This document shows, one piece after another, positions 23,002 to 53,115 of a stretch of DNA of 64,000 bases. Origin of the DNA: Amphiscolops sp. MND2022 (taxonomy: Eukaryota); assembly GCA_964187785.1 (NCBI GenBank), contig OZ076414.1, positions 53,382,001-53,446,000 of the forward strand, written 5' to 3'. The translations under genes and the position numbers were made by a program. Each line of letters opens with the position of its first letter. Positions within the stretch are counted from its first letter, which is position 1. The notes under the pieces were generated by a model. The model was not told where the DNA came from. It searched no databases and worked only from the letters and a program-made list of their open reading frames with translations.

Positions 23002-23213
23002 CTGACAGTAGTGATGACGATCGAAAAAAATAGAAAAAACGATATTGCTATTATAAAATTTGGTTATAAAAAAGCCTAACGTTAGTAATGTTACACAACA
23101 TTGTATATCTTAAATACAAAACTGGTCAACTACCTAATTAAGTTGAGCTGAATAAATTGAAATACTTGCAATGTGTGGACTTGCTTTCTTCAATCGTGCA
23201 GTTTTTTTCGGAA

Positions 23214-24122: not shown

Positions 24123-24907
24123 CTGAAATGGAAAACATTCAAAGCTCAAATAAATTTTGAGTTATACGTCACTCAACTCAATATTTCATTGCGAAACTTC
24201 CAAACAGGAGCGGTCAGATTTCTGACACCCACGAATGAACGATTCAACTTTTTTATAGCGACAAACCGCCCGCGCAAATTCACGAAAGTTTACCCAGAGA
24301 TGTGCAATTTTTCAACACGGTTGTTATCAACGGTGCTATTAACAACGTTATCAAAATGTGTTTGACATCAATGCTAGAAATGTTTGTTTTTAAAAAATGA
24401 TTGACACAACATGTGCATTCTTCAAGACTATGTCTGGTCATGAACATGATGCAATTTGGGCTGAATTTACAGATATTAGACTGGGGAGAGTTTAATGTTT
24501 GCAGTGCACTGTAACTATGAACTTTCTCTCAAGCAAAATCGCACCACGACGAAAAACACGAGACTACATAACATACAAAACGACTGGAATTTCAAAACGA
24601 AAGTCAGTGGTTAATTCTACAAACGTTGAGTTTATCGCATGATCAACGGCCAAAATAAATAAATCTTTTGACCGAGTTTGCTGAGTTTTGACTAGAATGA
24701 GTTTGCTGATGCGAATGCCGATTTCCTGGACTTTATAGATGGTTATAATTTGCGATTAAAAGAAGCTGACGATAAGTTTGAAGCCCATAATAATCCGAAG
24801 ATGAAGACTTGCATGCGATCACAAAGTATTAGCGGAAATCTTCCAAATTCGCTTCTCAAGATCAGTGATGTCCAAAATGTACTGGTTCCGCTGTACTTCT
24901 AGCGTTA

Positions 24908-25075
24908 ACAAGACGGGAATGTCTAAAGTAGGCGCTATATCTAAGGCTCAAAAAGAGAAGTTTTTCTCGTCCAAGAAGCGCAGCTGAAGCGTTAGCCAAT
25001 CATAAGCGCAACAAGCAATAAGCGCTGAAACCTAGTTCACTGTTCAGTATGTAAACGAAACACTCATACAGTAAC
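24908..25075 (+). repeat. Short or truncated member of the same HINE-like family; right end approximate
   Basis: ACAAGACGGGAATGTCTAAAGTAGGCGCTATATCTAAGGCTCAAAAAG shares its terminus with 23214. Confidence 0.5.
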
Positions 25076-25113
25076 TTTCATAATTTCTAGACATCAAAAG
25101 CGAAAAGGAGAGC

Positions 25114-25176
25114 AGTAGTAAATGTACGTGGCATTATATGTGGGGGGGGGGGGGTTGAGTGAGTAACCGAATATGG
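25114..25176 (+). repeat. Left terminal inverted repeat (63 bp)
   Basis: AGTAGTAAATGTACGTGGCATTATATGT-G13-TTGAGTGAGTAACCGAATATGG. Confidence 0.95.
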
Positions 25177-25192
25177 TCATAACACGGACTCC

Positions 25193-25448
25193 AAATGACG
25201 TCATGATTGCGACACAATGACGTAACCGAATGCAAAACATTTAGAATAACGTCACCAATCATTACATTTCATTGGTTGACGAAAAAAAACGACTAACAAA
25301 AGTGGAATGGTTTTTGTTAAAAATAACGCAGACTTCAAATAACGTCATGATTGCGACACAATGACATAACCGATTGCAAAAAAAACATTTAAAATGACGT
25401 CATCAATCATTACATTTCATTGGTTGACAAAAAAGAGCGACTAACAAA
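25193..25448 (+). promoter_or_regulatory. Tandem ~110-bp duplicated subterminal element with CRE and CCAAT-like motifs (putative promoter/enhancer)
   Basis: Two diverged copies (~25193-25300 and ~25338-25448); TGACGTCA at 25196-25203 and 25395-25402; CCAATC and ATTGG motifs. Confidence 0.45.
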
Positions 25449-25726
25449 ATGGTTTTTTCCATTGAGCCAAGCAAAAACTGAGTCTAAATAAAGATAGTTT
25501 TCTTGGTGATAAAGTAGTACTTTGCACAAATCCTAATTATCTTGCCTTCTTCCTTCTAGTGGGATCTGTTGGTATCCAGGTTTGAGCCTCAGAACATCCT
25601 CAATATTCTTTCCTAGTATTTGTGCAAGGGCTACTTTTCGACAAAAAAACACTGTTGGTTCAAAGCGAAAAGTGTAAATTCTCTACATTAGTGTTTTCGT
25701 GAATACTACTTCGAATTTAAAGATTT

Positions 25727-25942
25727 ATGGATATTGAAATTTTGAGCAATGATTCGGAGAGTCTTGCAACAGACAGCGGTTATAATTCAATGGTGTCATT
25801 TGACGAAGATGATGATGGTGATGATGGTCTGATGCATCTCAATGTTGAGGTTGTAGAACTGTTTGAACGCTTGTTGTCATGGCTGGATCAAGTTCAACAA
25901 ATTGACGACATTTTGCAAGACTGGATGATTGATGATGAGTAG
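25727..25942 (+). CDS. 71-aa acidic hypothetical protein with DSGxxS motif
   Basis: ATG-initiated ORF directly downstream of the left subterminal region; DSGYNS at residues 16-21, an acidic tract and an amphipathic C-terminal helix. Confidence 0.5.
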   Translation: MDIEILSNDSESLATDSGYNSMVSFDEDDDGDDGLMHLNVEVVELFERLLSWLDQVQQIDDILQDWMIDDE

Positions 25943-26041
25943 TATGTATGATGATGTCGAAGAATCTGGAAGGAAAAATATTTTTATGAATTCAGGCTGA
26001 ACGAAATGAAAACCAAACTTTGAAAACTCTTTTACCTTTTT

Positions 26042-26866
26042 TCACGAATCTGACGGATTTTTTCTTTTCCGAGACGCTAATTCAAACTGTTGAGCCAGCG
26101 TTTTTGCAGTCTCTAAGTCTTCCATTGTTATCAAGGGCTGTCCCGACGAGTCAACCAGGTCAGGAAACAATTCAGCAAACGTGCAGGTTTTGTTTTGCAT
26201 TTTCTTAATAAAAGTTAAAAGCTTTACAAACATTAGTGAATTGAATACTGACAGGGGACAAAATTCAGCTACTCTCACTTGTTTCTTTAAATCTGAGGTT
26301 GTAGCTTTTGAAACTTTGTCTTCGAGCAGTTCCACTTTTTTCAGCAATTCAAGTTCCTCCATGTTCAAATTATCAGTGTTCTAAAGCAAAAATAACCTTG
26401 TCCATGTCAGAGAATTTTACAGCAAGAAAAAGCAAAGATTACCTTTAAACTTTGTTCAAGATAGCTACTTGTGGATGGCTTGTTGTTACCATCAGCTTTA
26501 TCATCCTCAAAGTACCATGCGACCTTGTTTTTATCATCCTCTATGAACAATTTCTCCAAGAGGTTCCTTTCTGATTCGTCAACTTGGTATTCCGCAGCAT
26601 CGTCCGGAAACAACACTTTATTTTGTTTGTTACTGTTAAGGGCAGTATTTTTTTGACTAACTGTGCTGTCATCACCAAGAGGTGTGTCTGAAACATCATT
26701 AATACAAGCTCGCAATTGGACTATATTTCACCTCTGGTTGGATTATGTTTAAATGTTTACCTAAACCAATAATTGCTTGTCTCGTCCTCTTTTTCTCTTT
26801 GCGAAAAACAGTAGGAGGAACAGTTGTATTTTTTCGAGTCGGTGGTGTCCATTCATTGTTAGCCAT
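26042..26866 (-). CDS. Polinton hypothetical protein, 3 exons (26866-26761, 26720-26443, 26380-26042), 240 aa
   Basis: GT-AG introns 26721-26760 (40 nt, GTAAAC..ATAG) and 26381-26442 (62 nt, GTAATC..TTTAG) fuse three ORF pieces in frame; basic N-terminus and C-terminal RKRK. Confidence 0.65.
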
Positions 26867-26958
26867 TTCTGAAAAGTTGATGAGCTTTCATCGAAACTGA
26901 AAGAAAAAAAACAAATATATTCAAACCAGTTTTATAGAGAAAAAACTTCAGAGTTACC

Positions 26959-29900
26959 CTATACATTTATTGGGGATGTTGTAACACCATCATGCACAAA
27001 TCGTTTGTAATAAAAATATGTTATAGACATTTTGTTTTGTTTATATGTGAACATGTTTCCTCGGTAGTAGCGAAATCCCTTGTTAGTTCCTTCGTAGGGT
27101 ACTTTGTTGAACAAGACAGATTTAAATCTTTCCAATGGCGACACTAGATTTTTGTTGCTTCCTTTAAGAGCCATTTTCATCTTTTTGTTGTTTTCGTCAA
27201 ATGCACAGTAGGTTTTGCTGTTGAGACAAATCATTTCCGTTCCTTTCCATTCAATTTTGAAAAGTCCAGGTGTCCTTTTATCCATTGCACCGTGTTCTTT
27301 ACAGCAGCTTCGTGTTAGAAAATTCAGTTGAGCATTTGGTAGATAGCAATCTTCTTGTTCATGATAATGCTTTGCATTTTCTTGCATTTGTGATTTCGCG
27401 ACCTCATTGAAACATTCGTATAGATCGTTTTCCGTCAAAGCCATGTAGAAAGAGTCTGTGTCCATCTCTATAGCACGGAAAGACCTCGGTCTCATAATTC
27501 TGCCGAGAAAGTCGTAACGAAACTCTAACATTCTTTGTTTTCCATTGTTTAGTACTGTAAAACCAACGAGAATGGGTTCATCGTGCACAATTTTTCTTTT
27601 AGCCATGTTGATTTCGTATATTTTTTCATCCACAATGTCATAGGACCGGAATTTCGGAGAATTGATTTTTTGATCAACTTTTCTTTCATCAACAAAAAGC
27701 GTTTTTTGAAATTTTGATTTGTTTATGAGTTGGATGCCATATGCGCTGTTTCCAATAAGTTTGGATGTTTCTGCAATCACACTGAGCGACTTGTCTACAT
27801 CTCCTCGACGCCTGTTTTCTGTTACAAAATCCAAAAAATCTTTGAAGGGTTGTGCTTTTTTGTAACAAAGAAACTGGTAGCATTTTGTTACAACCAAACC
27901 ATGTTCTAAACACCACTTGATGTAGTCGGTAGATAACATTATCTTTTCTCCAAAGTAGCTGGCGACAAGACATTTCCAACCGTTTTTCATCAGACCGAAC
28001 TCTTTGGCATAATCTTGCATTTCCGCGGAAAGATGTTGCCTCTCGACAGTTGTATTTTTGAAGATGGGTGGAAGTTCTTTAAAGTGTTCCTTCAAGTGAT
28101 CTGGAACGTGGATGTCAATTTCAGCTATTCCATAGACTTTTTCTTTCCATACTGCATTGAGAAAAGTCTCCAACGTTGAAAACTTTTGTGGTAGACAATC
28201 AAGTTTTCTCACAAACTCTTTTATTTCGGGGTCTGTTTCTTTAAGCTGATTCCATTGACACTCCCATTGCTCAATCACACGATATCCTGCATTTAGAATA
28301 ACTTCCGTACGCTCCTTGTCATTTTCACGTATTTTCGCCGGTGTTTTTCCATGAATTAGAGGCGGCTGAAACACTTAGCAGTTTGAAGCACTTCAAAAGA
28401 AAGTATGATTCATTATTTCAAAACTAAAATTTTGTCAACTAACCAAACTTATACAGTCATGGGCGTGATGATAACATCCCATAAATTCCCAAACAGTTTT
28501 ACAGGACACACAGATAGCATCGGGAACGAGTGTTCTAACTTGGTGGCGCATATTTGTGAAACGAGTGGTCACTGAACAACTTGGGTTTTGGTCGTGATGA
28601 TGTTTGGAGATAAAAGCAACATACTGTCGTTCGGCTTGTAAAAATTTACTTTTTTCGGAAACTAGAGCGTTGTCGCTGTTGCACACGTAATGAGTCAACG
28701 GTCCAGTTGGCATGTTCCCACCAATAGCAGATAAATACAAAGCGTTGGCATCATAACCAACTATTGATTTGACTATTTCATCATTGATGGCAGTTTCATT
28801 AACTTTTTCGTAACGACTAAACACTATACTTGGTCCTCCAACAATGTTGTTTCGAACACTTTGATACAAATCCTTGTGTTTATAATTGAACAAAAAAATT
28901 CCTTCGCCTTTGTTTGATCGATGTAAAATTTTGTTGGCGGCGCCACTGAGTGTTAGAGTTTCCTTCAGCAAGTCAATCGAGTGTTGTTCATAGAAACGGG
29001 CCATTTTGGTCACAGCCTTGTGGAGGGGATAAACATCAAGGTTATTGTAATATTGTAAATAATCCATCATTGTTTGAAACCCTTCGTGGTCCCATGTTTG
29101 TTTAATGTCCTCATATACTTCCAACCCTGTCTTTGGTCTACTTGGATCAGTGAGGCTGCCTCCGTTCCGAACAAAACTGTTAATCTCGTTCTCCAAAACG
29201 TTTTCATTCTTTAGTGAGGAAAAGACTGCTTCGTAGGGTGGTAATGAAGTTTCTTGTAAAATTTCAAAACTGGTTAGATGTTCGTAAGGAAAGAAAAACT
29301 TGCTGACTTCACTACCATAGGCTTTCAAAAACTTGTCTAATGATGTACCAGCTGCAACAAAATGACTACAGTCCATGAAGCGCAGGTTTGGTGTCGAAAG
29401 GAGTAGGAAGCGAGTATTTCGTTTAATACACTTGATGGATGACAAGCTAACAAAACGCTGCAGAGACTTTAAAAGGTATGACTTTATCAAGTTCAAATCG
29501 TAGAATCCACTATTGAAACCAACAATTGGTAGTTGGTCAATGTATTGTAAGAACTGTGTTCGTGTTCTTTTCAGGAATCTGTGCAATCTCTGCTGTGTGC
29601 TGGATACAGTAGTAGTAGCGGTAGTGGTTTCGTTTAGAGCAGCTTCTTCATCATCTGAGTGTATGTTCTCTCCCATGGTGGTGTCATCTGGTTCAAATTC
29701 TAATAACATTTCATCAATTTGTTCTAGATAGGGTAAAAATTTTTGTCGCTGGTGAGAGATATTTTTGAGGGACAAGTCCATTAAATAGTCTACAAACTTG
29801 TCTACCAAAACGTTAGGGTCTTTTTCCACTAACCATTTTGCAGCCGATTCCTCTGTTGTAATGTTTTGATATATTGCAACCGATACGGGAATATGTTGAT

Positions 29901-31434
29901 GAGTAAACTCCAATTTTTTCGTCTTGATGAAACAATCATCTTGGTTGATATCAAATCCATTTGTTTGCTGTTGTGATGATGACTTTTGTCTCAAAATGGA
30001 TTCAAAATCAAAAGTAACAAAAGACTTGTAGAATCTATGCTCATGCGGAACACAGACATCAAACACGGTCTCTAGCGTCGTGAAAAAAGTGTCAGTGGGC
30101 GTGTATTTCCCACCTGGATAGGAATGATCTGACTTTTCCGAGCATGACTTTAGATGGCGATTCAATTCAAACAGTCGTGAAAAGTACTGTTCACACTTGA
30201 TGCACTTGAATCGTCGAAAAAATACATTTAAATTTCGGATTAGACAAGTGTGATTATCGACTAGAAGCAGATCAACAAAATTGGATTGCATATCCATTTC
30301 CAATGTTTTACTTCGGTATAACAATTCACCTTGTACTACATTATTCACATCAAGCTCAGCTGAAAACACTCGGATGGCGCAAGAACAAAACTTTTCAACG
30401 TCTGGCAGGTCCGTCAGCTCGATACCGGCAAAATCTTGAACGTTCTTTTGCACTCCGCGAATGTACTTTTGAAAAAGTTCCATTGTTTTAGATTCCAATC
30501 CATGCATAGAATTTTGTTGAAAGGCAGCCAAGGCACGAAATATGCAAAGATTATCATTAAACTTTCGTTTCGTAGATCTGCTCTGGGTAAGTGTCCAAAC
30601 ACTCCTTGCGGATTTGATGAAATCCGGAATATCTATTACATCTTGATCGGTGCTGCCCATTGGCAGGCGTGACAAGTGTGTGGCATGTAGAGAGACGTTG
30701 GTTAAACAGAAGAAAGTCCATTTTGTGCTGTCGCGAAAGTTTGTAAATTTTTCAATGAAGTCAGTGCTGAAAATGTCTTGTTTTAACAGTTTGAAGTGTT
30801 CAAAGTTTTCTACTAGCTTTGGTTTGGGTAAGACCGTTGTATTGTCACTTGAGTAGTAGTACCGATATTCGCCAGTTTCGTTGTTTGAGAGAATGTATCC
30901 AAAACTGACATTCATTTTGGATACCCTAGTTATTTTTGCAAAAGCTTCATCGAGTACATTACAAATATTATCAATCCCTTCATCCTTCAAAAGAAAATTG
31001 ACAGTTGTTTGGTGGGGTAGCAAAACAATTTGATCCCCCATAATGTGTCTCTTTCTACGAACAAGTTCTTTCAGTGATTCATCATCGCCAAATTGGGCAT
31101 CGTTCAGTTGAGAATTTGGTGATTTTAACATTTCATGTTCGGTATGTGTATGCTGTTGCAACTTGAGCATTGTTGCAAAGGTTGAATCACAGTAGCCGCA
31201 TTTGAAGTTTTTCTTTTTCACATGCTTCAGAGATTTATGAGTGTTGAGGTCTTGGCTACTTTTTGCAATGTATTTGCACTGTCCGCAGTGTAAATCATCC
31301 TTGTCGTGGGTCTTTTCATGTCGGTTTCGGTTGTATTTGCGCGAAAACTCTTTTCCACATTTACTACAAACAAAAGTTAGAAGGGATTGCTGAGAAGTTG
31401 AAGGAGTTGCTGTTGCGCCGTCAGACGACTGCAT
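26959..31434 (-). CDS. Protein-primed family B DNA polymerase (pPolB), 2 exons with intron 28366-28443
   Basis: Exonuclease motifs TFDFES and GFNSGFYDL; motif A SIVGYDANALY; motif B KLIGNSAYG; motif C EMDTDS; KMALKG. GTTAGT...TTTCAG phase-0 intron joins HDCISL|PPLIHGK in frame. The ORF track starts at 31500; the likelier Met is 31434. Confidence 0.93.
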
Positions 31435-31435
31435 C

Positions 31436-32041
31436 GTGATGAATAGAGAGCAGCAGCAGCACTTGCCGTCGTTCTTTCGGGAGAAATTCAATCTAAACAA
31501 GTGTCTGTTTGTTACTACAAATTCAAATAATTTTCAAAGTTTTCTGGTAACTCCTGAATTTGCTGTGGCTAAATATCAGACAAACAAGTTTTGTAACAAA
31601 AATAAGCAGTGCAAATATCACATCATGCTTTATGGTTTTGACAATATACAAAACAAGTTGATGCATCTGAATTATGATTTTGAAAATGTAAATTGTCCCA
31701 ACAGTTATTTCAAATTCTTCATTATTCTTTCGGAAAAAGTTGTTTGTATTCATGGAAACTTCCTCATGGAACCTTTGTTATTAGCTACCAAACACAATCG
31801 TATAAATCGAAGCAAAGAATGTGTCACGAGTCTACTTTGGAGACGGATTGGTCGGAAAAAAAGGAGACGACACTCACCAGCAACAACCAACAGAGGGCCA
31901 CAACACACTATAGCGTCGCTGATGAATATTGTTCAAATGCAGATTGTTGTCGCGACTCGTCTATTGGAAATTTTGCAACAACATTCTTCATCTGAAATTT
32001 CCACAACCACCACAAATGACATCAGCACAATAACCGAGTAA
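31436..32041 (+). CDS. Hypothetical ORF in the divergent region; true start and frame uncertain
   Basis: 201-aa ORF with an RKKRRR basic patch, overlapped by a competing 100-aa ORF (31693-31995); no family motif recognised. Confidence 0.3.
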   Translation: MMNREQQQHLPSFFREKFNLNKCLFVTTNSNNFQSFLVTPEFAVAKYQTNKFCNKNKQCKYHIMLYGFDNIQNKLMHLNYDFENVNCPNSYFKFFIILSEKVVCIHGNFLMEPLLLATKHNRINRSKECVTSLLWRRIGRKKRRRHSPATTNRGPQHTIASLMNIVQMQIVVATRLLEILQQHSSSEISTTTTNDISTITE

Positions 32042-32154
32042 TTTTCCTTTGCAAGCTTACCTTGCAACATCAAATCATTACTTTTGTTCACTACCTACAG
32101 TTCAGTTGTTATTTGCTGATTCAAAAAATTTTGACAAAATAAAAAATTTTCATC

Positions 32155-32787
32155 ATGTCATCAACTGCTGTCATCAACCCTGTTGATTGTAAAGTGTTGA
32201 AATGTTTTAAAGTTGAAGTTAGTACAAAACGTTACCTTTTAATTACAGTTAAAAGCTATCCGTCTTCTTCAGAAAGCTATACAAGTATTCAACTTTTCAA
32301 GTTGGATGAAGAGACCAAGGAATACACACCACAAAAGTATTTGACTCTCAAGTTTCAAGAATTAAACAAAATTCCTTGGGACGACGTTTACACCAACGTT
32401 GTCAATGTCTTCGACTTTTCACTAGACGTTCGCATGCCCTACCACAAGAATGATATGGACTATTTTGACTTCATCTTTGATGTTCAAGACTTTATCTCAA
32501 ACAAATCGAGAGTCGTCAGAGTAGCTTCCAAGCGTTATCCTCAAGCAACCTACTTGTACTTAAAACTCTTTATTCAACATCAAAAGCGCTGGAAAATGCA
32601 ACAAACAATAGACATTTCTTGGATGGAGCTATCTCATTTATTGAGTGTTGTCAAAGAGATTCAGAGCTACCCAAATGGAATACCTAAAGAAGGAAGTCCA
32701 ATCACAGAGACTGGCTTATTTCGTCCAATCGCAACATTGACTAACCCAGAAATCAGCAGCAGCAGCGTCAGTAGCAATAACCATTAA
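32155..32787 (+). CDS. Polinton protein with two tandem PC4-like (ssDNA-binding) repeats
   Basis: Internal duplication KRYLLITVKSY...IQLFK...LTLKFQELNKI / SRVVRVASKRY...LKLFI...IDISWMELSHL resembles the PC4 strand-strand-helix pattern. Confidence 0.55.
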   Translation: MSSTAVINPVDCKVLKCFKVEVSTKRYLLITVKSYPSSSESYTSIQLFKLDEETKEYTPQKYLTLKFQELNKIPWDDVYTNVVNVFDFSLDVRMPYHKNDMDYFDFIFDVQDFISNKSRVVRVASKRYPQATYLYLKLFIQHQKRWKMQQTIDISWMELSHLLSVVKEIQSYPNGIPKEGSPITETGLFRPIATLTNPEISSSSVSSNNH

Positions 32788-32835
32788 CAAATTTTTTGAG
32801 TGCTTCATTACCTCTCTTACTCTTACAGAATTTAG

Positions 32836-33465
32836 TTGCTTGCTTGCATGATGGCTGATTTCAACTACATTATTACGTTTGTTTTGGATGTGGAGTTTTT
32901 AGAAGTTGACGTAGTTAAAGAAATTAGTGTAACCACACCGTACCACTCCGTATCTTTATCATTCAAACCTCCCAGACCATGGAAAGATCTAACCCGTGAA
33001 GAACAACTGGAATACAACAACAATAACAACACTCTCAATGTTCCGTGGGATGAAGGCGCTATTGACTATAAGGAACTGAGGAACGCTGTATACACCCTCA
33101 TTCCACCAGGAGTCATGAAGTATGCAAAAGGAGTGCAAAAGTGTGACTTTTTCTCTCGTTTTTTCCATTTCAAAATTCACAATTTGGAAGACATGGGCTG
33201 CCCTGACGCCTCTGCAATCCAATATTTGACAAATAAGAACATTAAGGAGAACAACGACAACGACGACGACGACGACGACAAAGAGAACAGGCCGTTGTGT
33301 CCCAATTTTCCCAAATATCCCAATCATTATGAAAAATGTGCAGCCATCAATAGTAAGCTTTATCTCAAGTGGTTAGCCAATAAAATTAAAGAAGATCCTG
33401 CTGCTGCGGAAATGGCGCGAAAGACTTCCCCGCTGCGCAACGATGCAGCACTCATACTCATGTAA
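32836..33465 (+). CDS. DEDD/DnaQ-like exonuclease-family protein
   Basis: N-terminal LDVEF (D-x-E), VKEISV, FKPP..W, WDEG..Y..L, YAKG.QK, NLEDMGCP and C..H...CA pattern typical of a Maverick-associated exonuclease-like family. Confidence 0.55.
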   Translation: MLACMMADFNYIITFVLDVEFLEVDVVKEISVTTPYHSVSLSFKPPRPWKDLTREEQLEYNNNNNTLNVPWDEGAIDYKELRNAVYTLIPPGVMKYAKGVQKCDFFSRFFHFKIHNLEDMGCPDASAIQYLTNKNIKENNDNDDDDDDKENRPLCPNFPKYPNHYEKCAAINSKLYLKWLANKIKEDPAAAEMARKTSPLRNDAALILM

Positions 33466-33494
33466 TTATCATCATCATTTGTTAAATTTGCAGC

Positions 33495-33758
33495 ATGACT
33501 GATCAGCCGGACCTTGCAGTGCAAGAATTCGTTTTTGATGAGAATAACCAAGAACGCAAGCCTTGGACACTTTGCGGCAAGCCTATTCCACGGTCCGAAA
33601 TTGTCTTTTTCAGTCAATTACTTGTCATTCTTATGGTTATCTCATTTTGTATTTTCAAACTTTCTGTATCATCTTCAAACGATAAAGACAAGCCGGTTTG
33701 GATTGCCTTGCTGGCCAGTGCACTGGGATCTATTCTACCCAATCCGACACTGAAATGA
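33495..33758 (+). CDS. Small two-pass membrane protein (87 aa)
   Basis: Hydrophobic segments IVFFSQLLVILMVISFCIFKL and VWIALLASALGSILP; stop overlaps the ATPase start (ATGA). Confidence 0.65.
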   Translation: MTDQPDLAVQEFVFDENNQERKPWTLCGKPIPRSEIVFFSQLLVILMVISFCIFKLSVSSSNDKDKPVWIALLASALGSILPNPTLK

Positions 33759-34489
33759 ACAAGGTCATTCCCACTGACAACCATGTGTTTATGTCTCTTG
33801 TTGGTCCATCCGGCTCTGGAAAGACTACTCTTTTGTATAAACTTTTAACCTTGCCAGTGTTTCAACCAAGGTACCAATCTGTTATTTTTTTCTATCAACA
33901 TTATCAAGAAGCGTACGAAAAATTGAAGCGAGATGTTGAAGAAATTGAATTCATACAAGGACTAGACTTTGATTTGATCAATCAATCATTTACACATGAC
34001 GGAAAAAAACGCTTGCTAATTTTTGATGACTTTTCAGAGGAACTTTTAAAATCTAAAGATTTCACTCGGATTGCTACCGCTGGTAGACACTTGGGCTTGC
34101 ATGTTTTGTATATTAAGCATAATTTATTTCATAAATCACCCATTGGAAGAGACGTAGAGTTGCAGTTGACTCATATTGTGCTTTTTCAATCTCCCCGTGA
34201 CATTAATCAAATTGAACGACTTGGGCAACAGTTGGGCAAGCAAAAATTTTTACCTCTATGCTATAAGGATGCCACATCCAAACCTTTTGGATTTCTCATG
34301 ATTGATCTGTCACCCAAAACATTGGATCTTTTACGATTTTGTACAAATTTGGAGCCAACAGTTTTCTATATACCCAGTGAAAAGGCCCGCATTACAGAGA
34401 TTGACGATGACTACACAACAAGTTATTACGCTGCAGCATTTCAAGAGTCTTTCACTGGTCGACCGGTTGGACATGTTGAAAAGATGTGA
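33755..34489 (+). CDS. DNA-packaging ATPase (FtsK/HerA/A32-like)
   Basis: Walker A LVGPSGSGKT, Walker B LLIFDD, ATAGRH, KHNLFHK; uninterrupted. Confidence 0.93.
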   Translation: MNKVIPTDNHVFMSLVGPSGSGKTTLLYKLLTLPVFQPRYQSVIFFYQHYQEAYEKLKRDVEEIEFIQGLDFDLINQSFTHDGKKRLLIFDDFSEELLKSKDFTRIATAGRHLGLHVLYIKHNLFHKSPIGRDVELQLTHIVLFQSPRDINQIERLGQQLGKQKFLPLCYKDATSKPFGFLMIDLSPKTLDLLRFCTNLEPTVFYIPSEKARITEIDDDYTTSYYAAAFQESFTGRPVGHVEKM

Positions 34490-34712
34490 GGACAATTTCA
34501 TTGAGTTTCTGGCCGAATCAGTTGTAAACATTTTGCAAGGTGTAGTGCCCGGAATCAGGCGGAAAGACATTGAAAAGTTCAAGCCACAAATTGTGCGAAT
34601 CATTTCGACCAAAGCAACTCTTGCGGAACAGCGGGCCATATTCACTTCCCGAAAGGGGCTCTTGTTGCTAGATGTTATTATCGAGCATGTTATTCAATAC
34701 TTTTTAAGTTAG
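34407..34712 (+). CDS. Conserved small Polinton protein overlapping the ATPase 3' end (101 aa)
   Basis: R..ML...EDNFIEFLAESVVNILQGVV...R.IF...GLLLL, a pattern typical of the ORF that follows Polinton ATPases. Confidence 0.55.
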   Translation: MTTQQVITLQHFKSLSLVDRLDMLKRCEDNFIEFLAESVVNILQGVVPGIRRKDIEKFKPQIVRIISTKATLAEQRAIFTSRKGLLLLDVIIEHVIQYFLS

Positions 34713-34717
34713 TAGTA

Positions 34718-35437
34718 ATGGAATTGAAAAAATTTGTATTGATACCTTTTTCACAGTACAAGAGTCAATTGGCATCGAGTAGGCCTGTCAGCACAGTATT
34801 GTACGATTCAAAATTGACCAATGAGGAAAAGACTAAAATTTTGCCTACATTGGACAGAAAAAAAAGGAGAGCTGCTGCTGTTGTAAGCACGCCCACCACC
34901 ACGGTCACTGCTAGCACCGTACCTGCAAGTAGTAGTAGTAGTAGTAGTAGTACAACAAAGACTATTGATCGTCAAAAGGAGGCAATTTTGTTGGATGTGG
35001 GTGGAAGCGAAACTACTCAAAGACGTAGCGCTTCGTTGTACGACAAAATTTTGTCTAACCCAAAAATAGAATTGACAAGTGAAGGTACAATTAAGCTGGA
35101 AAATTCCGACACAGACATTCCTCTCAGCACATTTTTATATAGATTACAGAACCCTTTTCCAAAAAGTAGTCCAGTAACACGACAGTTTTTGGACATTGTT
35201 GAAAATGTGAAAATCCCCGAACACTTGATTGCAAATCAGTCTCTGTTGAAACATCAAAGAAGTAGACAAAATAAAGCTCCTCCTCTCGTCGGCTCGGACG
35301 ACGACGCCGACGATGACGAAGAGGACTTTGAAAGCGTCGACGAAGGTGCAGGTAGCAGCAGCAGCAGGGCAACAAGCGGCAAAGAAAAGAAAGGAAAAGA
35401 ATGGTATTCAGTCAAGGGCGAAAAGAAACAATTTTGA
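34718..35437 (+). CDS. Polinton hypothetical protein, Ser/Thr-rich with acidic C-terminus
   Basis: 239-aa intact ORF starting MELKKFVLIP, between the ATPase cluster and integrase. Confidence 0.65.
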   Translation: MELKKFVLIPFSQYKSQLASSRPVSTVLYDSKLTNEEKTKILPTLDRKKRRAAAVVSTPTTTVTASTVPASSSSSSSSTTKTIDRQKEAILLDVGGSETTQRRSASLYDKILSNPKIELTSEGTIKLENSDTDIPLSTFLYRLQNPFPKSSPVTRQFLDIVENVKIPEHLIANQSLLKHQRSRQNKAPPLVGSDDDADDDEEDFESVDEGAGSSSSRATSGKEKKGKEWYSVKGEKKQF

Positions 35438-36365
35438 AAAAGACAGAGAAAAAAGATTGTTGGAGAAAGCTTGGAAGAGTGGTTTCTCAGCATATGGATC
35501 GCGTCAGAATTTGCAAAAAGCTACAAAATTGTCCGTGAAAAAAGTTGATGCCTTTTTGCAAGGTAAAAACTCCTACACAAAATTTTTCATTCCCCAGCGT
35601 AGATCCTATCCCCGATTGACGACACTTGCTTTCGACATTAACGACATTTGGTGCATGGACGTTGCTTACGTCGATAAAATTGCCATGCCAAATGATGGTG
35701 TAAAATTTTTACTAGTCTGTGTAGATGTCTTGTCACGCTACTTGAGAGTGGAACCACTGAAGCGACTGACATCTGTTGCTGTGAAAGATGGTCTAGTTGC
35801 CATGTTAAATAAATGCCCGACAGTACATCCCAACAAAATTTGGACCGATCAAGGTCGAGAGTTTGAGGGAGAATTTCGCAACTTTTGCAAAACTGTTGGA
35901 ATACACCAATATAATTCGTTCAGCGGTACAAAAGCAGCGTTTGCTGAGCGAGCCATTAGAGCCTTGAAGGCCCAAATTGTTCGGTATCTCGAAGAGGAGT
36001 GGATGTGGCGCTATATTGACAAGTTGCCAGACTTTGTAAAAACTCTCAACGACCGTGTGAATCGATCAATTGGTATGGCACCGTCAAAAGTTGAGAAAAA
36101 ACATGTGCTCAAACTTATCGCACTCAAACAAAGGTCTGCAGTGATGAAAGAAAAAAAGGCCAAGTACAAGGTGGGCGACTTTGTACGCATTGCTTCAAAG
36201 AATGTACCCTTTAGAAAAGGATATCTGCAACAGTTTACAAATGAAATTTTTTCCATTTCCACCGTGTTCTCCACTCATCCACCGTCTTACATTTTGCGCG
36301 ATGAAAAAGGCCAAGAAATTCAGGGCAAATTTTACGAAGCTGAGATTATTAAAGTACTTAAGTGA
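35313..36365 (+). CDS. Retroviral-type (c-integrase) DDE integrase
   Basis: IWCMDVAY (D), IWTDQGREF (D), AFAERAIR (E); C-terminal FRKGYLQQFTNEIF...GKFYEAE. Confidence 0.95.
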   Translation: MTKRTLKASTKVQVAAAAGQQAAKKRKEKNGIQSRAKRNNFEKDREKRLLEKAWKSGFSAYGSRQNLQKATKLSVKKVDAFLQGKNSYTKFFIPQRRSYPRLTTLAFDINDIWCMDVAYVDKIAMPNDGVKFLLVCVDVLSRYLRVEPLKRLTSVAVKDGLVAMLNKCPTVHPNKIWTDQGREFEGEFRNFCKTVGIHQYNSFSGTKAAFAERAIRALKAQIVRYLEEEWMWRYIDKLPDFVKTLNDRVNRSIGMAPSKVEKKHVLKLIALKQRSAVMKEKKAKYKVGDFVRIASKNVPFRKGYLQQFTNEIFSISTVFSTHPPSYILRDEKGQEIQGKFYEAEIIKVLK

Positions 36366-36407
36366 AAAAAATACATTTCACAAATCATTTTTCAGCTTTA
36401 ATCGACA

Positions 36408-36872
36408 ATGAGTGGTTCATTCCACAAACAAAACCCATTAAACAATTATTACCGTGGTCCCGTTAGACAAAGAGGAAGTGGCATTGGGTCTTTAGCCCTC
36501 AAAGTTGCACGTCATGCACTACCACTTTTGTCCAAGTACGTTTTGCCCTCTGCCAAAAGAGTGGGAAAAGATTTTGCTTTGAATTTGTTGCCCGAAGTAT
36601 TTGATGTTGTCACTGGTCGTGGTGGTGAACCAGCAACATCTTCAAGCATTAAAAAGGCAGTAAAGCGTGCAGCGGGAAAAACAGTAAAGAAACAATTGGG
36701 CACTGGTGCAGCAAAAAAGAAGAGACGACAACAGTCAGTTGGAAAGAGTTCCAAGACCAAAAACAGTCGCACAGCAAAAAAGGGCCGCAAAAAAACATCA
36801 GGAGGCAAAACAACAACAACGAAAAAGACTCAAAAACGCAAAAAGATTGACATTTTTCAAAACTTGCCTTGA
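36408..36872 (+). CDS. Lys-rich putative virion core (pVII-like) protein
   Basis: YY...RQRGSGIGSL motif (adenain-type GxG cleavage context) and a highly basic C-terminus, immediately upstream of the MCP. Confidence 0.7.
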   Translation: MSGSFHKQNPLNNYYRGPVRQRGSGIGSLALKVARHALPLLSKYVLPSAKRVGKDFALNLLPEVFDVVTGRGGEPATSSSIKKAVKRAAGKTVKKQLGTGAAKKKRRQQSVGKSSKTKNSRTAKKGRKKTSGGKTTTTKKTQKRKKIDIFQNLP

Positions 36873-36907
36873 CGGTCAATAACATTCGTAATATTATTCT
36901 CAAAACA

Positions 36908-38206
36908 ATGACGACGACGGCGGCGCACATAATACCTAAACCGGCAACCCACTCTAGTCTGGACATTTTTTCTAAGCCAGAAGTGCTTGTGTCTTTTGAC
37001 AATTCGTTTGAACAAGAAACGTTGCCAGTCACTGCACACGATGCACCAGTTTTTGAGTTTGTACTCACCACTGATCGAAACATTTACTTGGATTTGCAAA
37101 GCGTCGAATTAAAGTTGGAGGCAAAAATTGGAAAGGGCGCCAATGGCAATACTAATTTGGAGACGGAGTTGGCTGGAGGCAACACTGTAGCTAAAGCAAC
37201 CGACAAAGTCAGCTTCATCAACAACACTCTACACTCCTTCTTTTCCAATTGGGACATTTTAATCAACAATGAAATTGTACACACGTCCAACAATTTGTAT
37301 GCACAGAGAGCTTTTGTTGAAACGGAACTGTCCCACACACAGGGCTGTGCCACAACAAAGCTCATTACGCAAGGCTACAACTTTGAGCCCGCCACCGGTG
37401 ATATGCTTGCCCACCGAGAAACATGGACCTTAGGTTCCGCTTCAAAGACATTTTATGGAAAACTGGCGGTGGATTTCCTGGCTTGTGATCAACTTCTCAT
37501 TCCCAATTGTTCTATGCGAATTCGACTGACACGTAACAAGCCCGAATACTTGCTGCAAAGTGCTGTCACCAACCCTGCCTTCACCCCAAAAATTGAACGA
37601 GTGTCAATTTTTGCTCGTTACTACACTGTTGCCGAAAACTATCACGTCAATTTACAACGATCTCTACTCAAGTGGCCTGCTAGATACAACTATTTTGAAG
37701 TACGCAGCAAGACATTTGTGATTCCAAGGGACCAAAGTCATTTTATTCGTGAAGACATTTTCAATGCAGAACCCATTAGACGCATGGTACTGGCCATGTG
37801 TCCCAACAATCAGTTTACTGGACGTTGGACAGACACTCCGCTCGCATTCCACAAACACAATTTGAAGAAAGTGCGAGTATTGCGGAATGGTGTGCCAGTG
37901 GTGGAATATAGCACAAGTTCCAACACTCAACTTTACTTTAAGACTATTCAAAACCTCCATTTTGATCAAGACGGTCCCCTAATCAAGTTGGACAATTATG
38001 AAAATCACTACTATCTAGTTTTCGACCTTACCTCCACACTACAGTGCAATCAAGAAATTTACTACCCCGAAATTGTGGGAGCACCAATACGGATCGAGCT
38101 CGAATTTTCGACCAACACTAGCACGCCTTTGGAGCTGTTTGTGCTGGGAGAACGATTTACAACAGTTCAAATTGATCATACAGGCAAAGTGTTGAAACAT
38201 GGATAG
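36908..38206 (+). CDS. Major capsid protein (double jelly-roll)
   Basis: SLDIFSKP, FINNTLHSFFS..DILIN, LYAQRAFVETEL, GKLAVDF..DQLLIP, FDLT motifs typical of the Polinton MCP; intact. Confidence 0.92.
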   Translation: MTTTAAHIIPKPATHSSLDIFSKPEVLVSFDNSFEQETLPVTAHDAPVFEFVLTTDRNIYLDLQSVELKLEAKIGKGANGNTNLETELAGGNTVAKATDKVSFINNTLHSFFSNWDILINNEIVHTSNNLYAQRAFVETELSHTQGCATTKLITQGYNFEPATGDMLAHRETWTLGSASKTFYGKLAVDFLACDQLLIPNCSMRIRLTRNKPEYLLQSAVTNPAFTPKIERVSIFARYYTVAENYHVNLQRSLLKWPARYNYFEVRSKTFVIPRDQSHFIREDIFNAEPIRRMVLAMCPNNQFTGRWTDTPLAFHKHNLKKVRVLRNGVPVVEYSTSSNTQLYFKTIQNLHFDQDGPLIKLDNYENHYYLVFDLTSTLQCNQEIYYPEIVGAPIRIELEFSTNTSTPLELFVLGERFTTVQIDHTGKVLKHG

Positions 38207-38627
38207 TGCAGCCTTGCTACAAGTTATTTCCAAAATTCCCGCACTAAAATATCGATACTTGGGTTGCTTCGACCCCAATACTTTCATTTTCCCAATGCCA
38301 ATAGACACTTTTCAAATTGTAAACACCACTACAGACGTTGAGGGACATTGGATAACGTTGATTCGCTTATCCAACGGTTTTCACTATTTTGGAGATTCCC
38401 TGAAAGCAACAAGCTTGAATCAGTACCCAATGTTGTTTACCCGACTGCCACCACCGCCAGAACAGAAAAAGACAACAACATTATTTCTACCTTTGAACAC
38501 TTCAATAAAGCAGGTCGATTCCTTGTGTGGTCTCTATTGTATTTATTTTGCATGGAACTTGTTTGATAATACACCTAAAGTGACGAATGATTTTGAATTG
38601 TATCAATTGTTTTGTAATCTTTTATAG
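38199..38627 (+). CDS. Adenain-like cysteine maturation protease
   Basis: Catalytic set GHWI (H), FGDS (D), Q..SLCGLYC (Q, C). Confidence 0.9.
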   Translation: MDSAALLQVISKIPALKYRYLGCFDPNTFIFPMPIDTFQIVNTTTDVEGHWITLIRLSNGFHYFGDSLKATSLNQYPMLFTRLPPPPEQKKTTTLFLPLNTSIKQVDSLCGLYCIYFAWNLFDNTPKVTNDFELYQLFCNLL

Positions 38628-38659
38628 AAAAAAAATGTTTGTAAAGAAAGTTTTTTTTT

Positions 38660-39557
38660 TCAATCAGTAATTGCAGGCACATGTTTTTTGCGAAAATGTA
38701 AATTTAAAACTACAAGACCCAAACTGGTAAAGGGAATTAATTTTCCCTTCATATCTCGAATCTCAATCTGTATACTATTGAAATTATCCAAACAAACATT
38801 TCGATACTGCAAATTGGAAAAGGATCGGTTGTCGTAAGGGTATATGACAATCAAATCCTCATTTCGTTCGTTGACGAAATGTGAAGGCACGTAAAAGTTG
38901 GTTCTTCACATTGCCCACGTTACTAAAGTCTACAATATCACTGTATACAAAAATTGTGTGAAAACGTAAGATATCACAAGGGTAGGGAGCAATGATTTGG
39001 TTGGCTTCACAGTACACAGCATCCGTTCCCAATCCCAAAATTTGAGCCAAGTCATCACTTTGAATTTTGAAGTATACACGGCTCTGTCCTTCTGTAGTTC
39101 CTTCAAACGTGAATGAAAGGTTCAAAGTTTCCTCGTTGTAAGCAAAGGTCATTGTCCTCTCCATGTTTGTAAAAGTAGCAATTTGAGAATTCATTGCGTC
39201 AATAATTTGACCAATTTCTGTGTAACAACCCTTTGGAATGTTAAAAGAACGATATTGATTCAAAAAGGGCACATCTGGATAACTATTTATAAGTTCCTTG
39301 CTGACAGTATCAGGTTTGTTTACAACAACACGATATCGTTGAAGAGTCGGTGTAGGAATATAGCCTAGCGTGAATTCACCGTCGGTGACATTGTATACTC
39401 GGTTTGGGAACGAAATGTCTGTCAGTGCAACTTCCCATTCACTACCTCTGCCCAAATTGATTGGATTTGACATAAAGTTTGAAAAAAATGCCAGAGTATT
39501 ATTTGGATAAATGTCCAAACTTGCATTAGACAATAGATCAATGTAAAAGGAAGTCAT
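38660..39557 (-). CDS. Minor capsid (penton) protein, interrupted by a 1-nt frameshift near 38877-38879
   Basis: N-terminal FYIDLLSNAS..IYPNNT..F...WEVAL..I.FP; the C-terminal IQIEIRD..GKLIPF...LHFRKK lies in the +1 frame (ORF 38660-38890). Confidence 0.85.
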
Positions 39558-39616
39558 TGTTTTAGGGAACTGTATAGGAAACACAGAATTTGATTGAATG
39601 AGAGTCAATCACTCAT

Positions 39617-40012
39617 TCATTCATCTTCACTGCTGCTGCTGGAGCCAATCATCAGCTTTACCCTCTTTAGTTTTTTCTTTTTCGGTTGGCGAGAACATTT
39701 TTCGTCGTCGACATCCGCCGAAGTTTCTGCGTTGCTATCTGTATTATCGGATATCGACCAATAAGATCGTAAGGATTCTTCGTATTCTTGTGTTCCCAAT
39801 TGATTCTCCGTAATGGGCACTAGTGTGTTTTCCAAACGATTGAACTCTCTTCTCAATTCCAGACTCAAACAACCTGGATGTGTGCATTCCATTTCTTTCC
39901 AGTCATACGTTTCCAACAACATCAAATCAACAGAGTATTGACGGGGCAGTTGCGGCGGACTAGGAGCTGTCAAGTCAAAAACACTTTGGTCGTCAGTGTC
40001 ACTTTCTCCTTG

Positions 40013-40044
<32 letters not shown>

Positions 40045-40330
40045 TCGATCTGAGCATTTTTTTTGCCGTATCAACTGTAACTTGAGCACTAATTAAGTGC
40101 AATAAATGAACCGGTAGGAGAAAAGACTCAACAATTTTCCATTCATCATTTGTTGCTGAGTTTTTCACTTCCTTTATTAGGATTGCCGACGCTCCGAAAT
40201 GTGTCTTGTAGGCAAATATACGTTCGACGTCATTACGTTGTGTGAATATGTAAATCATTGTTTCCAACAACAACAAATTTATTCTGAAAACAATAATGTT
40301 AAAACTACTGCAAAAAAAAACAACAATCAT
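39617..40330 (-). CDS. Polinton hypothetical acidic protein with C-terminal NLS-like motif (alternative start 40258)
   Basis: 237-aa ORF with a poly-Asp tract and QPKKKKLKR near the C-terminus. Confidence 0.6.
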
Positions 40331-41098
40331 TTTGTGTTAAGGAGATTCAGCAGTGACCAGTAGAATGGATGAGAGCTGCTTGCTTGAAGAAGCGTGTTTT
40401 TAATTGATGGGAAAAAAGTTTATAAAAATTATACGTTCTAATGCAAAAATTTTTGCAGTGTGGAAAAAGGGTAGAATTTGCTATGTTACGTTGATCATTG
40501 TGAATCTTGTATAGTTGTCGGGTGGTAAACAAGAGCTACTCTAACTGCTATTCTCAGTCAATAAAGATGAAAACAAAAAAAATTTTTGAAAAAAAAATTC
40601 AGAACAAAATATTGAGTGAACCCTAGACATGGGCACATCAAATTCGTCTAATTTTTCGTCCCGAATCTAAATTTTGCATCAAAACGGCGTTTCTCGTAAA
40701 ATTGGGGTTTTTCAAAAATTTTGCCCTATGGGGGGATTTTTCCCCTTTCGGAAAATAATTTTTCAAATGGTTATTTTTTGGTCTTTCCAATGATATATAT
40801 GACAATGGGTGTTCGTGATAGTCATTGACAAGTGAAATTTCGAGTTTTAAAATTGAAAAAAATGACTGAAACTAAGTTTTTCCGTGAATCGAAACCATGC
40901 ATTCATGTTTAAATTTTAATTCCAACCAGAATATGACAAAGATACCTCATTTCAGAATTTTTCATTTTTCTCCATGATAAGGGGTTGTTGACGTTACAGT
41001 TATAAGTAGAAATTGAATATGTACAAAACTAGATTCACATCCTTAAAGTGAGTCTTGAAGAATATTAGTGTTAAATGAAGAAAACTACAACTTAGCTA

Positions 41099-42313
41099 TT
41101 AGTTGTTTTTGGGAGACGCCAATTGAAGAACATCGAGCAAAGTTCGTTCCAAAAACTGCCGAGTGTAGTGAAATTGGTCAGTCATGTCGACGCCCCTGGT
41201 ACGCATCTTGTGCACGTTCAAAGATTTGCACTTTTCGAGCTGTTTCTGCAAAACTTTATCGACCCTTTTCTTGTTCGAATTGGGAAGAAGTTGATTACGT
41301 CTCGCCAGACCAATCACTAGTTTGACACCTTTAGTTCTGCAAACTCTGTTCCAGAGCATTAGTTTTTCCGTAAGGTCTTTAGGTGACAGTGTTGAAACAC
41401 TATTGTTCCCTTAAACACATTGTTTCCCAATCAACAATCTTTTTTTAATCGCAAAAAAACTCAATTTTGTTGCTACGGGGCAACAGGGTTAGGGTTAGGG
41501 TTAGGTTTGAAAAAAAAAAACAAAAGAGTACAACTAACTTGGTGGCATTGTGAGCGAATTGTAGAGAATGTCGGGAAAGATAAAGACGAACTGACACTCT
41601 GGTCGAGAAAGGGCTCGAAACAACAAGGAGTCAAGGGTAGGTTTTGAAAAGTTTCGTTTAGAAGAGGAGGAGTATTCATGTCGACCGCCACTTTCGGCGA
41701 GAATTTGGATATGTTTATAATGAGATGAATCCTTAATGATTCTAGAAAGATTTGAAGCACCAATAACAATCGCGTGCTTTTTTTCCATAAAACCTGAAAA
41801 CAGATGATGTGTTATTTCATTGTCAGAGCAGAATAGTTTTGGTACTAGAACAAATCGTGCAAGTACAGACAAAAACAAAAAAAACATGCAAATATTCATA
41901 TTAGAACTGATTTTTGATACAATAATACTTATGAGAGTTGTTTATGCGTTTTTGGAGGGCCTGGAGGATACCCACATCAAGGGTACCTTTCCTCCAGGCC
42001 TCCACACATGCGCGCAGGAGCCCGCGCTCGTGCTTTCTGATCGCCCAGAAGGCGAACAGATCGAGCACGGGCTCCATCGCAGTCCCATCGATGTAGGATT
42101 GGATTCCCTGCAGCAAAAAGGTATTGGTTATTTTAACGAGTGTTTAACCTGAAGTTTCGAAAACAAAACTTAACGTACCTCGTGACGACAAATCATCAGC
42201 AAAGCGTCCCATGTCTCCGCCGATATTTCAGTGAGGCAGGAACCTCTACATTTTTTGTTAATTAACCCCCAAGAATAATGATCCAAAAGGTCCAGTTCTT
42301 GGAGATTTAACAT
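41099..42313 (-). CDS. SGNH/GDSL hydrolase-like protein, 4 exons (42313-42179, 42107-41921, 41793-41539, 41409-41099), 295 aa
   Basis: Three GT-AG introns (71, 127 and 129 nt) give one 888-nt frame. Motifs in SGNH order: VIGASN (block I), ESGG (II), DILYNS (III), DQFHY (V). Confidence 0.65.
41485..41505 (+). repeat. Telomere-type (AGGGTT)3.5 tract inside the predicted last intron of the SGNH-like gene
   Basis: agggttagggttagggttagg. Confidence 0.9.
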
Positions 42314-43321
42314 TTTGTTTAGGAAATGGTCTCAAGAATTGTTGCTGGTAACTTTTTGTTGCTGGTTGTTAAGTATTGTTGCTGGTGTTTAAATTTCTGA
42401 GCAAGGAATGAATTTTCCGTGCTCGTCAGGCTCAACCCACTAAGCACCTCCTCCGATTTTTTCGAGTTTCACTTTTATCTGGGAAACATCAAAGATTTTA
42501 ACCCAGGCACAATTTCCATATCTAATCATTTGGAAACTCGGATAAACAACCATATTCACTTTTTAGGGCCCATAAGACCTCGATCAAAGGCTCGGCTATC
42601 TTTTGAACCTGCTTTCAAAGTGTTGCAGGGTCCACCTTTATTCCTTTGAAATTCAGAACCCACCAAATTTGAGTTTCCAAGTGATGAATCAAAGAAAAGA
42701 CCGACACTCTGTTAATTGGCATTGTTTTTTTTTCAGTTATAATGAACAAAAAAATGTTGCCTTCACAATTCCAAAACAAATTAGAAGGCATTTTGATTGC
42801 TTTTTTCCAAAAATTTAGCATTTTTTCCCGAAATTTTCATGCTTTTCTCAGACATTTTAGGTCATTTTGTCTCTTTACAGAATGTGAAAATTCGGTGTAA
42901 AAAGAAGCTGGGATGATTTCCATATGCTTGCTGGAATAGTTAATGACTGTTTCCATTACGCAAATGAAGGCAATATCAGGGAAATTTGTTCCACAGCAAT
43001 CACACTTCTAAAGAAAGGTAATATAATCTAAGAGCACATTCATTTCAAAGTTGCTAGATTAAAAGAATTTTTATTGATTCCATTTCCTTTCATCCCATCT
43101 GCGTTCCATTTCCATTCCTAACAAACCACTCCTTCCATTTTTATTACTTTCCAGCACGCCAAGGTAAGGAACTTTCCTTTCATTGCCTGAAATACGAACA
43201 AAAAATTATCGGGCCTGTATTTTGTTTTCGGATTTTGTTCGGCTCTCGGTGATTTTTTTTTGTTCGGATATGTCATGTTCGTATCGCAAATATTACGTAA
43301 CGTTTCAGAAAGTTTTGTTGT

Positions 43322-43380
43322 CCATATTTGGTTACTCACTCAACCCCCCCCCACATATAATGCCACGTACATTTACTACT
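43322..43380 (-). repeat. Right terminal inverted repeat (59 bp)
   Basis: Reverse complement of the left TIR with G9 instead of G13 and one substitution; homology stops inward of 43322. Confidence 0.95.
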
Positions 43381-43397
43381 GAGAGCTCGATTTTTTT

Positions 43398-44046
43398 AGT
43401 CGGCGCTTCATGAAGTGAAACGCGACTATTATAGTGACTTTTCTTTTTTTTTTTTTTCAATCCACACGAACTGACCAAAATAGTTCTTAAAAGTTCTACA
43501 AAATATTATTGGTCCAAAATGCACTATTTGGTCTAGCGAACTGAACCAAAAAGGTTTTTCCTGTTTTCCCGCGTACCATACCATACCCGGGGAGACCAAA
43601 GGGTCCCCCCTTCCAATTTTTTTCGGCACTGCGAGACTTTTTTCCCGGAATTTTTTTTTCTTCAAAGGGTCCCCCCCTTCAACTTTTTTGCTGTTTTGCG
43701 ACAGAATGGATGTTGGAAAATCCCAAAGGGTCCCCCCTTCCAATTTTTTTTCGGCACTGTGAGATTTTTTTTCCAAAAATAAAAATTTTTGTTTTTTTCA
43801 GTTTTTTCATGTTTTGCGACAGAATGGATGTTGAAAAACCTTAAAGGCCCCCCCTCTTCAGTTTTTCGGCATTGTGAGACGTTAGCGCGCCACTCGGTCC
43901 ATTTTTTAGTATGTAATTTTTTCAAAAAAAAATTTCGAAAAATTTTCGATTTTCGACTACTGTAAACGAATACTTGACACTTGGAAGTCTTTTTGCTATT
44001 TTTGAGCCTTGGATATGGCGCCGACTTGGGCCGGTCCCGGCTTGTT
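43398..44046 (+). mobile_element. Helentron-type non-autonomous element (HINE-like), family 2
   Basis: Subterminal inverted repeats AGTCGGCGC (43398-43406) and GCGCCGACT (44018-44026), 3' hairpin GCCGG-TC-CCGGC (44030-44041), T-rich flanks, internal tandem repeats. Confidence 0.7.
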
Positions 44047-44557
44047 ATCTGTAACTGCTTCTTGCAGATCATGAGAAATTGAAAGAAACGCCAAATGTGC
44101 CGTTCAAAAAATTCAGCCACCGCTTCTGATTAGCTGTAGCTGAATTACACCAAGCGGTCGAACCATCGCTGAGTACACTGAATTTGTATGTTTGCAGTCG
44201 CTAATTTGGAAAATGATCCTCACAGAAAAATTAAAGGCATTTTTGTATCAGCTCAACTGGCTATTTGGGCTGGAGACAACTTTCCACGTAGAAATTCAAT
44301 TAAGTGTACCATGTGAAATAATGAGCAAACATCACTTAATGCCAACAAACCTGGTTTTATAGCACACAGTCCTTCATTCGCTTATGACAAGAAAATGTTG
44401 AAATCGCACATTATCATGTGTATTTCAAAATTTGTCAATCGTACTATTTCAGTTCGTTGAATATGAACTGTTTTAGACTCGCATAAAAAAGGCATCTTCG
44501 AGATTGGATGGAAAAGACACAGTGACAATTTCTATTGCAAGTTGAGGTGAAACTCAC

Positions 44558-52783: not shown

Positions 52784-53115
52784 TGGAAATGATGATAAAG
52801 GAGTGTTTAGCACCGAAGATTGTGATGGCAAGACTGATTTGGTGTGATAACTGGGGAAGCCGCGCAGAGGCGAAGCAACAGGACAAAACTGAAAAACAGG
52901 TCACAGTTGGAGTTAAAATGTCACGTAAACTGATGGTCACTCAAACTTTTGGGACGAACACACAAAATATAAGGCTAAAAAGTTCATGTGGTTATTTACT
53001 AAAATTTGCACTCACCGGTGCATTATTGTTAAAACCTAAAGTGCTTTCCTAGTTACAAAAAGGCAATACAAAAGGCCAGTGGCCTGGTTTGCCAAGAAGA
53101 GAACGAAACGTGTTC

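Follow-up and report, generated by a model that had tools for sequence, protein, structure and literature searches.

A 64,000-nucleotide stretch of the Amphiscolops sp. MND2022 assembly GCA_964187785.1 (contig OZ076414.1, positions 53,382,001 to 53,446,000 of the forward strand; hereafter, the window) carries at positions 25114-43380 an 18,267-bp element that is a genuine young Polinton, and its short ends, which a preliminary description had flagged, lie within known variation. We consider it likely that this is a recent insertion from an abundant family of animal Polintons/Mavericks, that its ends are built in two tiers (a near-perfect core of 66/62 bp and a decayed 60-bp extension), and that its polymerase is made from a spliced message. 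The ends are laid out as follows, in window coordinates; TSD stands for target-site duplication and TIR for terminal inverted repeat.

25108-25113, plus strand: left TSD, GAGAGC
25114-25179, plus strand: left TIR, near-perfect core of 66 bp, with AGTAGT start and 13-G run
25180-25237, plus strand: left degenerate extension of the repeat, with a CRE/ATF-like palindrome at 25196 and additional motifs at 25207 and 25217 (names presumptive)
25179-25449, plus strand: subterminal tandem duplication, a 148-bp unit present 1.9 times with 87% matches; the unit starts with the degenerate extension
43258-43318, minus strand: right degenerate extension of the repeat
43319-43380, minus strand: right TIR, near-perfect core of 62 bp, with 9-G run
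43381-43386, plus strand: right TSD, GAGAGC

The element has AGTAGT at both termini, and the 6-bp GAGAGC copies lie directly outside them. Its terminal repeat contains the G-run and GAGTGAGTAACC; apart from a 4-nt difference in the length of the G-run, 60 of 62 aligned letters of the core are identical. An exact search of the window for the terminal 27 nt gives two matches, a number that none of 100 shuffles reached. Polintons are recognized by terminal inverted repeats with a conserved end motif and by a TSD of 5-8 bp, usually 6, and both are present here. So are the expected genes: pPolB (in two coding parts), a DDE integrase, a packaging ATPase, an adenain-like protease and a major capsid protein (MCP) of double-jelly-roll type. 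The preliminary description is confirmed in its TSD, AGTAGT start and G-run; its figure of 59-63 bp of homology is close to the near-perfect core that we measured, and the hallmark virion and replication genes to which it referred can all be recognized. A terminal hairpin model was rejected, the DNA folding of the two ends being unremarkable (z 0.44 and 1.21).

The family is large and its members are very similar. Clusters of the window's proteins at 90% identity have 44-214 members, the capsid cluster holding 167 proteins, and exact sequence copies were found of the protease on 13 contigs, of the ATPase on 17 and of the core protein on 16. Sister comparisons drew on the 15 listed members of each cluster; of the 15 MCP sisters compared, seven are full length and 97.2-99.5% identical. 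In two independent data sets, among four runs examined, relatives at mostly 90-99% identity span almost all of the element. To judge from these sequences, this is an abundant, young animal Polinton family and a recent, clean insertion, which bears out the earlier view of a young Polinton/adintovirus. A search with an MCP profile produced 42 related loci in metagenome contigs and 16 candidates in viral contigs, none of the latter confirmed. Among the metagenome loci, none of the ten over 6 kb has inverted repeats at its own ends. One related element (L008 7821-7844, L010 1209-1232) has a perfect 24-bp palindrome within its gene for the core protein.

The two subterminal regions had been described as completely different. 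Instead, the left-right match persists in register beyond the core to about 124 bp, in decayed form (41 of 56 aligned letters in a local alignment of the ends). Its matches are concentrated in three bZIP-like motifs that keep their order: a palindrome, then TTGCGA, then ATGAC with CCGAA after it. The palindrome we take to be CRE/ATF-like. With the alignment of the extensions anchored where the core ends, the score is 23 (shuffle mean 2.6), a value that 3 of 1000 shuffles reach. A scan of the right extension along the element, in 9,104 windows, gave as top non-self matches the in-register left position and the tandem duplicate of that position. Past 124 bp, end-to-end similarity disappears (1868 of 2000 shuffles score equally well). 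Mismatches number 2 in the core but 15 of 56 in the extension; because decay in the host would strike both alike, this implies that the two-tier state is older than the insertion. The 148-bp subterminal unit also bears CRE-like and CCAAT-like motifs.

Nor is the repeat unusually short, as had been claimed. Intact vertebrate Mavericks, which have the AGTAGT motif and a 6-bp TSD, are reported with TIRs of 46-1,447 bp (mean 402 +/- 276; PMC8097293), and the existence of 46-bp TIRs in intact elements largely disposes of the claim. Adenovirus inverted terminal repeats (ITRs) can be as short as 25 bp, with a range of 25-53 bp in atadenoviruses (PMC8781740). A repeat of about 65 bp thus belongs to the short tail of the published range and is not exceptional. 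The 66/62-bp core does fall below the commonly quoted, non-strict figure of 100-1500 bp; with the decayed part included, the length is about 124 bp.

The short end may also characterize the family. In run X3 (record 15), the contig of a relative begins within the core, at 25147, and continues unbroken through the left-specific region to 26592. Long identical ends would be expected to interrupt an assembly graph at the point where they part, so the perfect repeat of this relative is probably short also, and this one contig weakly suggests that the short end is a family trait.

Polinton and adenovirus biology together suggest how such ends might be maintained. The integrase would cut at the AGTAGT ends, leaving the 6-bp duplication, as in other Polintons. 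As in the rest of the family, pPolB would prime each end via its N-terminal terminal-protein domain, a domain described for the pPolB of Polintons (PMC11161782), and only the stretch that stays paired in strand-displacement replication would be kept identical. The repeat may thus shrink while host-factor motifs just inside it persist at both ends. The core would then likely hold the integrase site and the replication start, motifs just inward of it may bind host factors in the manner of adenovirus ITR sites, and the decayed 60-bp extension would likely mark a formerly longer repeat. If only the outermost stretch is homogenized, a short core would be a property of the family and not damage to this copy.

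A different history would begin with a master copy that had long TIRs and in which one subterminal arm was replaced or rearranged, making the short repeat a lesion of a sub-lineage. Typical Polinton TIRs, quoted as 100-1500 bp (10.1101/2023.08.22.554363), would fit such an origin. The subterminal zone is also unstable, in that the 148-bp unit varies in number: there are 1.9 copies here, one in runs X3 and X4 (a skip of 151), and apparently an extra, re-duplicated one in X2. Nevertheless, arm replacement should leave an abrupt end, where we find an in-register extension that is 73% identical, and the relative at about 90% identity shares the left subterminal sequence, joined to the core without a break. 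We therefore regard arm replacement as unlikely, and return to a short, homogenized core flanked by a decayed tier.

The second main element of our reading concerns the polymerase, whose coding region is arranged as follows.

28444-31434, minus strand: pPolB upstream coding part, with C2H2 zinc fingers, exonuclease motifs and Pol motif A
28366-28443, minus strand: segment of 78 nt within the VSR-like insert of pPolB, predicted to be a phase-0 spliceosomal intron (GT..AG ends, three stops in frame, 72% AT)
26959-28365, minus strand: pPolB downstream coding part, with motifs KLxxNSxYG and DTDS; without a Pfam match on its own

Although pPolB had been presented as one open reading frame (ORF), its frame is split by a segment of 78 nt that contains stops at 28437, 28395 and 28377; otherwise the frame is open through 1,491 codons. 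The segment has its GT and AG ends in phase 0 and is 72% AT, compared with 58-60% in the coding DNA on either side. The motifs that flank it are 71 aa apart here, or 45 once the 26 codons of the segment are subtracted; the 56 homologue matches found among 331 proteins all have them 40-53 aa apart. Fourteen pPolB sisters are listed; four reach codon 999, and all four end there. The segment is retained in the DNA of closer, diverged relatives (runs X2 and X3) and absent from the related loci L022 and L023, which are probably one element. We conclude that the segment is probably a spliceosomal intron, which this lineage acquired within the VSR-like insert. The search for pPolB homologues returned 762 at E<=0.001, many with PF03175; the named ones come from scallop, pearl oyster, sea cucumber and coral and are 35-40% identical. 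That search, which covered 549-1749 aa, had no full-length close relative among its best 120 hits.

Could the interruption instead be an insertion that inactivated the gene and became fixed in a non-autonomous sub-family, one mobilized by the polymerase of another Polinton? In favor of this, the core genes of vertebrate Mavericks are described as intronless (PMC8097293), as are those of nematode Mavericks, where introns are reported in cargo genes (10.1101/2022.07.12.499685). Our literature searches found no published intron in an animal Polinton pPolB; introners are known in dinoflagellate proviruses (PMC11957031). Many of the listed sister proteins are fragmentary, and a second MCP cluster, 36% identical, includes a contig equal in length (398,364) to that of a sister, which hints at another family in the same assembly. 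An inactivating insertion would not, however, be expected to combine AT-richness with GT..AG ends in phase, to leave both coding parts open with their catalytic motifs kept, or to persist in diverged relatives, and like segments occur in both accessory regions of the element. We think this alternative quite unlikely and favor a spliced pPolB message.

Several points nevertheless weigh against the interpretation as a whole. An unanchored 200x200 local alignment of the ends with lenient gaps is not significant (414 of 3000 shuffles), and the inner boundary of the extension was initially spotted by eye. The difference in G-run between the ends may be an assembly error, and so may the frameshift in the penton gene described below. 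The contig start at 25147, which weakly suggests a family trait, is also explicable by G-run variation or by an absent right end, and runs X3 and X4 appear to be one data set. Cluster counts may take in several assemblies or haplotypes. The intron is a prediction from sequence. Finally, the exact end motif had 0 matches in viral contigs, and blastn with the ends against the 42 MCP-related metagenome loci gave only three short internal chance hits.

Adenoviruses offer a parallel to the ends. Their short ITRs (25-137 bp) are enough for protein-primed replication, and in them sites for host factors, ATF among these, come after a core origin (PMC8781740, PMC5717082); adenoviruses have no integrase or TSD, and the likeness to our element is an analogy only. 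ITRs down to 25 bp imply that a long repeat is unnecessary for a protein-primed genome, and because weaker left-right similarity runs on to about 124 bp, the ends of our element fail to delimit a minimal origin cleanly. Repeat length alone sets no limit to the origin, and the idea of a minimal origin is neither shown nor specially favored. In its strong form, with the outermost 60-odd bases sufficing by themselves as a minimal protein-primed origin and chance in AT-rich DNA accounting for all further similarity, it is very doubtful: identity does drop sharply past 66/62 bp, the unanchored test was not significant and adenovirus ITRs of 25-53 bp exist (PMC8781740), but the anchored test and the element-wide scan each pick out the extension, adenovirus ITRs bear auxiliary NFI, Oct-1, Sp1 and ATF sites past the core origin (PMC5717082), and the origin is not delimited by repeat length.

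A broader proposal, which we offer tentatively, is that an amplifying family is shrinking its TIRs toward an adenovirus-like layout, with a 65-bp core and a tier of bZIP-type sites, while host splicing of the VSR-domain intron gates replication. The short ends by themselves change little, being published for Mavericks and normal in adenoviruses. The decayed extension, in contrast, reveals motifs that survive at both ends without homogenization, and this makes them candidates for host-factor sites in a group with unmapped origins. The probable intron has a more practical consequence: screens based on ORFs would score the whole young family as dead, and counts of active invertebrate Polintons may be too low.

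Among known systems, the element is most readily compared with animal Polintons/Mavericks with 5'-(AGT)2//(ACT)2-3' ends (PMC8097293), with which it shares AGTAGT ends, a 6-bp TSD, pPolB, integrase, ATPase, protease, MCP and a putative minor capsid protein. Its 18.3 kb fall within the published size range of 12.7-24.6 kb, and its TIR within that of 46-1,447 bp (PMC8097293). It differs from those Mavericks in a TIR at the short tail, in the predicted pPolB intron (none in their intact elements, as reported), in gene order and in its invertebrate-type host (PMC8097293). With adintoviruses (PMC8502044) it has in common an animal host, ITRs, and PolB, rve integrase, FtsK-type ATPase, adenain, hexon and putative penton genes; for our element the comparison covers assembled contigs. 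PF03175 has no match in this copy's pPolB and is annotated on a cluster representative (P0123). Polintons with a VSR-containing pPolB2, reported from marine molluscs and a marine nematode (10.1101/2023.08.22.554363), share the GCxxH...WEC insert after Pol motif A, and three of the nearest named pPolB homologues are labelled VSR-like by JGI. This is a likeness at only 35-40% identity, and the insert is split here by the predicted intron.

The remaining features of the element are these; the Pfam scan took in 18 of its ORFs.

26042-26900, minus strand: left accessory region, a probable multi-exon gene with AT-rich GT..AG segments of 62-88 nt
31439-33758, plus strand: four ORFs of 200, 210, 205 and 87 aa with no assigned function, three of them matched in related elements
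33755-34489, plus strand: A32-like packaging ATPase (Pfam Pox_A32, E 3e-10)
35313-36365, plus strand: retroviral-like DDE integrase (Pfam rve, E 7e-12; D, D, E motifs)
36408-36872, plus strand: basic 154-aa protein before the MCP, a probable core protein (labelled from position and composition)
36908-38206, plus strand: MCP, double jelly-roll, 432 aa (AlphaFold pLDDT 83; Foldseek)
38199-38627, plus strand: adenain-like maturation protease, 142 aa (ESM Atlas top cluster Peptidase_C5, score 0.96)
38660-39557, minus strand: putative minor capsid (penton) gene, frameshifted near 38860 as assembled (Atlas lead and conservation in relatives)
41099-42200, minus strand: right accessory region, probable multi-exon gene(s), with a telomere-like hexamer run near 41489

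The capsid identity of the MCP came from a fold search, in which its model matched the PBCV-1, iridovirus and Sputnik capsids (Foldseek, best E 5e-17); a PDB sequence search with the same protein gave 0 hits. Both accessory regions (about 26040-26900 and 41100-42300) contain several AT-rich GT..AG segments of 60-92 nt. This pattern suggests that they are multi-exon cargo genes; the 106-aa ORF of the left region is without a Pfam match. Pyrimidine-rich ...CAGTT motifs, at 26895 and 39570, lie a little upstream of start codons, and the short telomere-like hexamer run occupies 41489-41510 inside the right accessory region.

The lead for penton was Adeno_Penton_B, annotated on 18% of one ESM Atlas cluster, a low level of recognition, and 10 of the 15 related loci longer than 3.5 kb have the match too. 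In this copy the frame of the gene stops near 38860, its final portion being in a different frame. Fourteen penton sisters are listed, and all 11 that reach the junction read through it; on this comparison the break is either a frameshift peculiar to this copy or a fault of assembly, and as assembled this copy could not by itself encode a full-length penton. Intactness of the element is not confirmed, given three stops in the pPolB frame and a frameshifted penton. By the definition applied to intact Mavericks, core ORFs all open and intronless (PMC8097293), the interrupted pPolB and the shifted penton place this copy outside that class. In 10 of the 15 related loci over 3.5 kb the penton match directly follows the integrase and shares its strand; in this element it is behind the protease, on the opposite strand.

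The flanking DNA gives the setting of the insertion. A host gene for USP5 (ubiquitin hydrolase 5) lies at 21116-23005, 2 kb from the left end of the element, and matches named animal orthologues at 39-45% identity and others at 60-83%. This neighbor shows that the host is an animal, its sequence pointing to a fast-evolving invertebrate. An abundant host repeat (43393-44050) starts 7 bp past the right TSD, and in run X2 37 contigs have loose ends at 43393. Similar sequence is also found left of the element, at 23220-23600, and 24906-24957 and 43996-44047 form an inverted pair with 81% identity. Elsewhere in the window are what we take, from their translations, to be two Ty3/Gypsy-like elements and a non-LTR reverse transcriptase ORF, at 6900-10700, 48900-56700 and 61554-63017. 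One of these Ty3/Gypsy-like elements has an extra ORF of 1093 aa.

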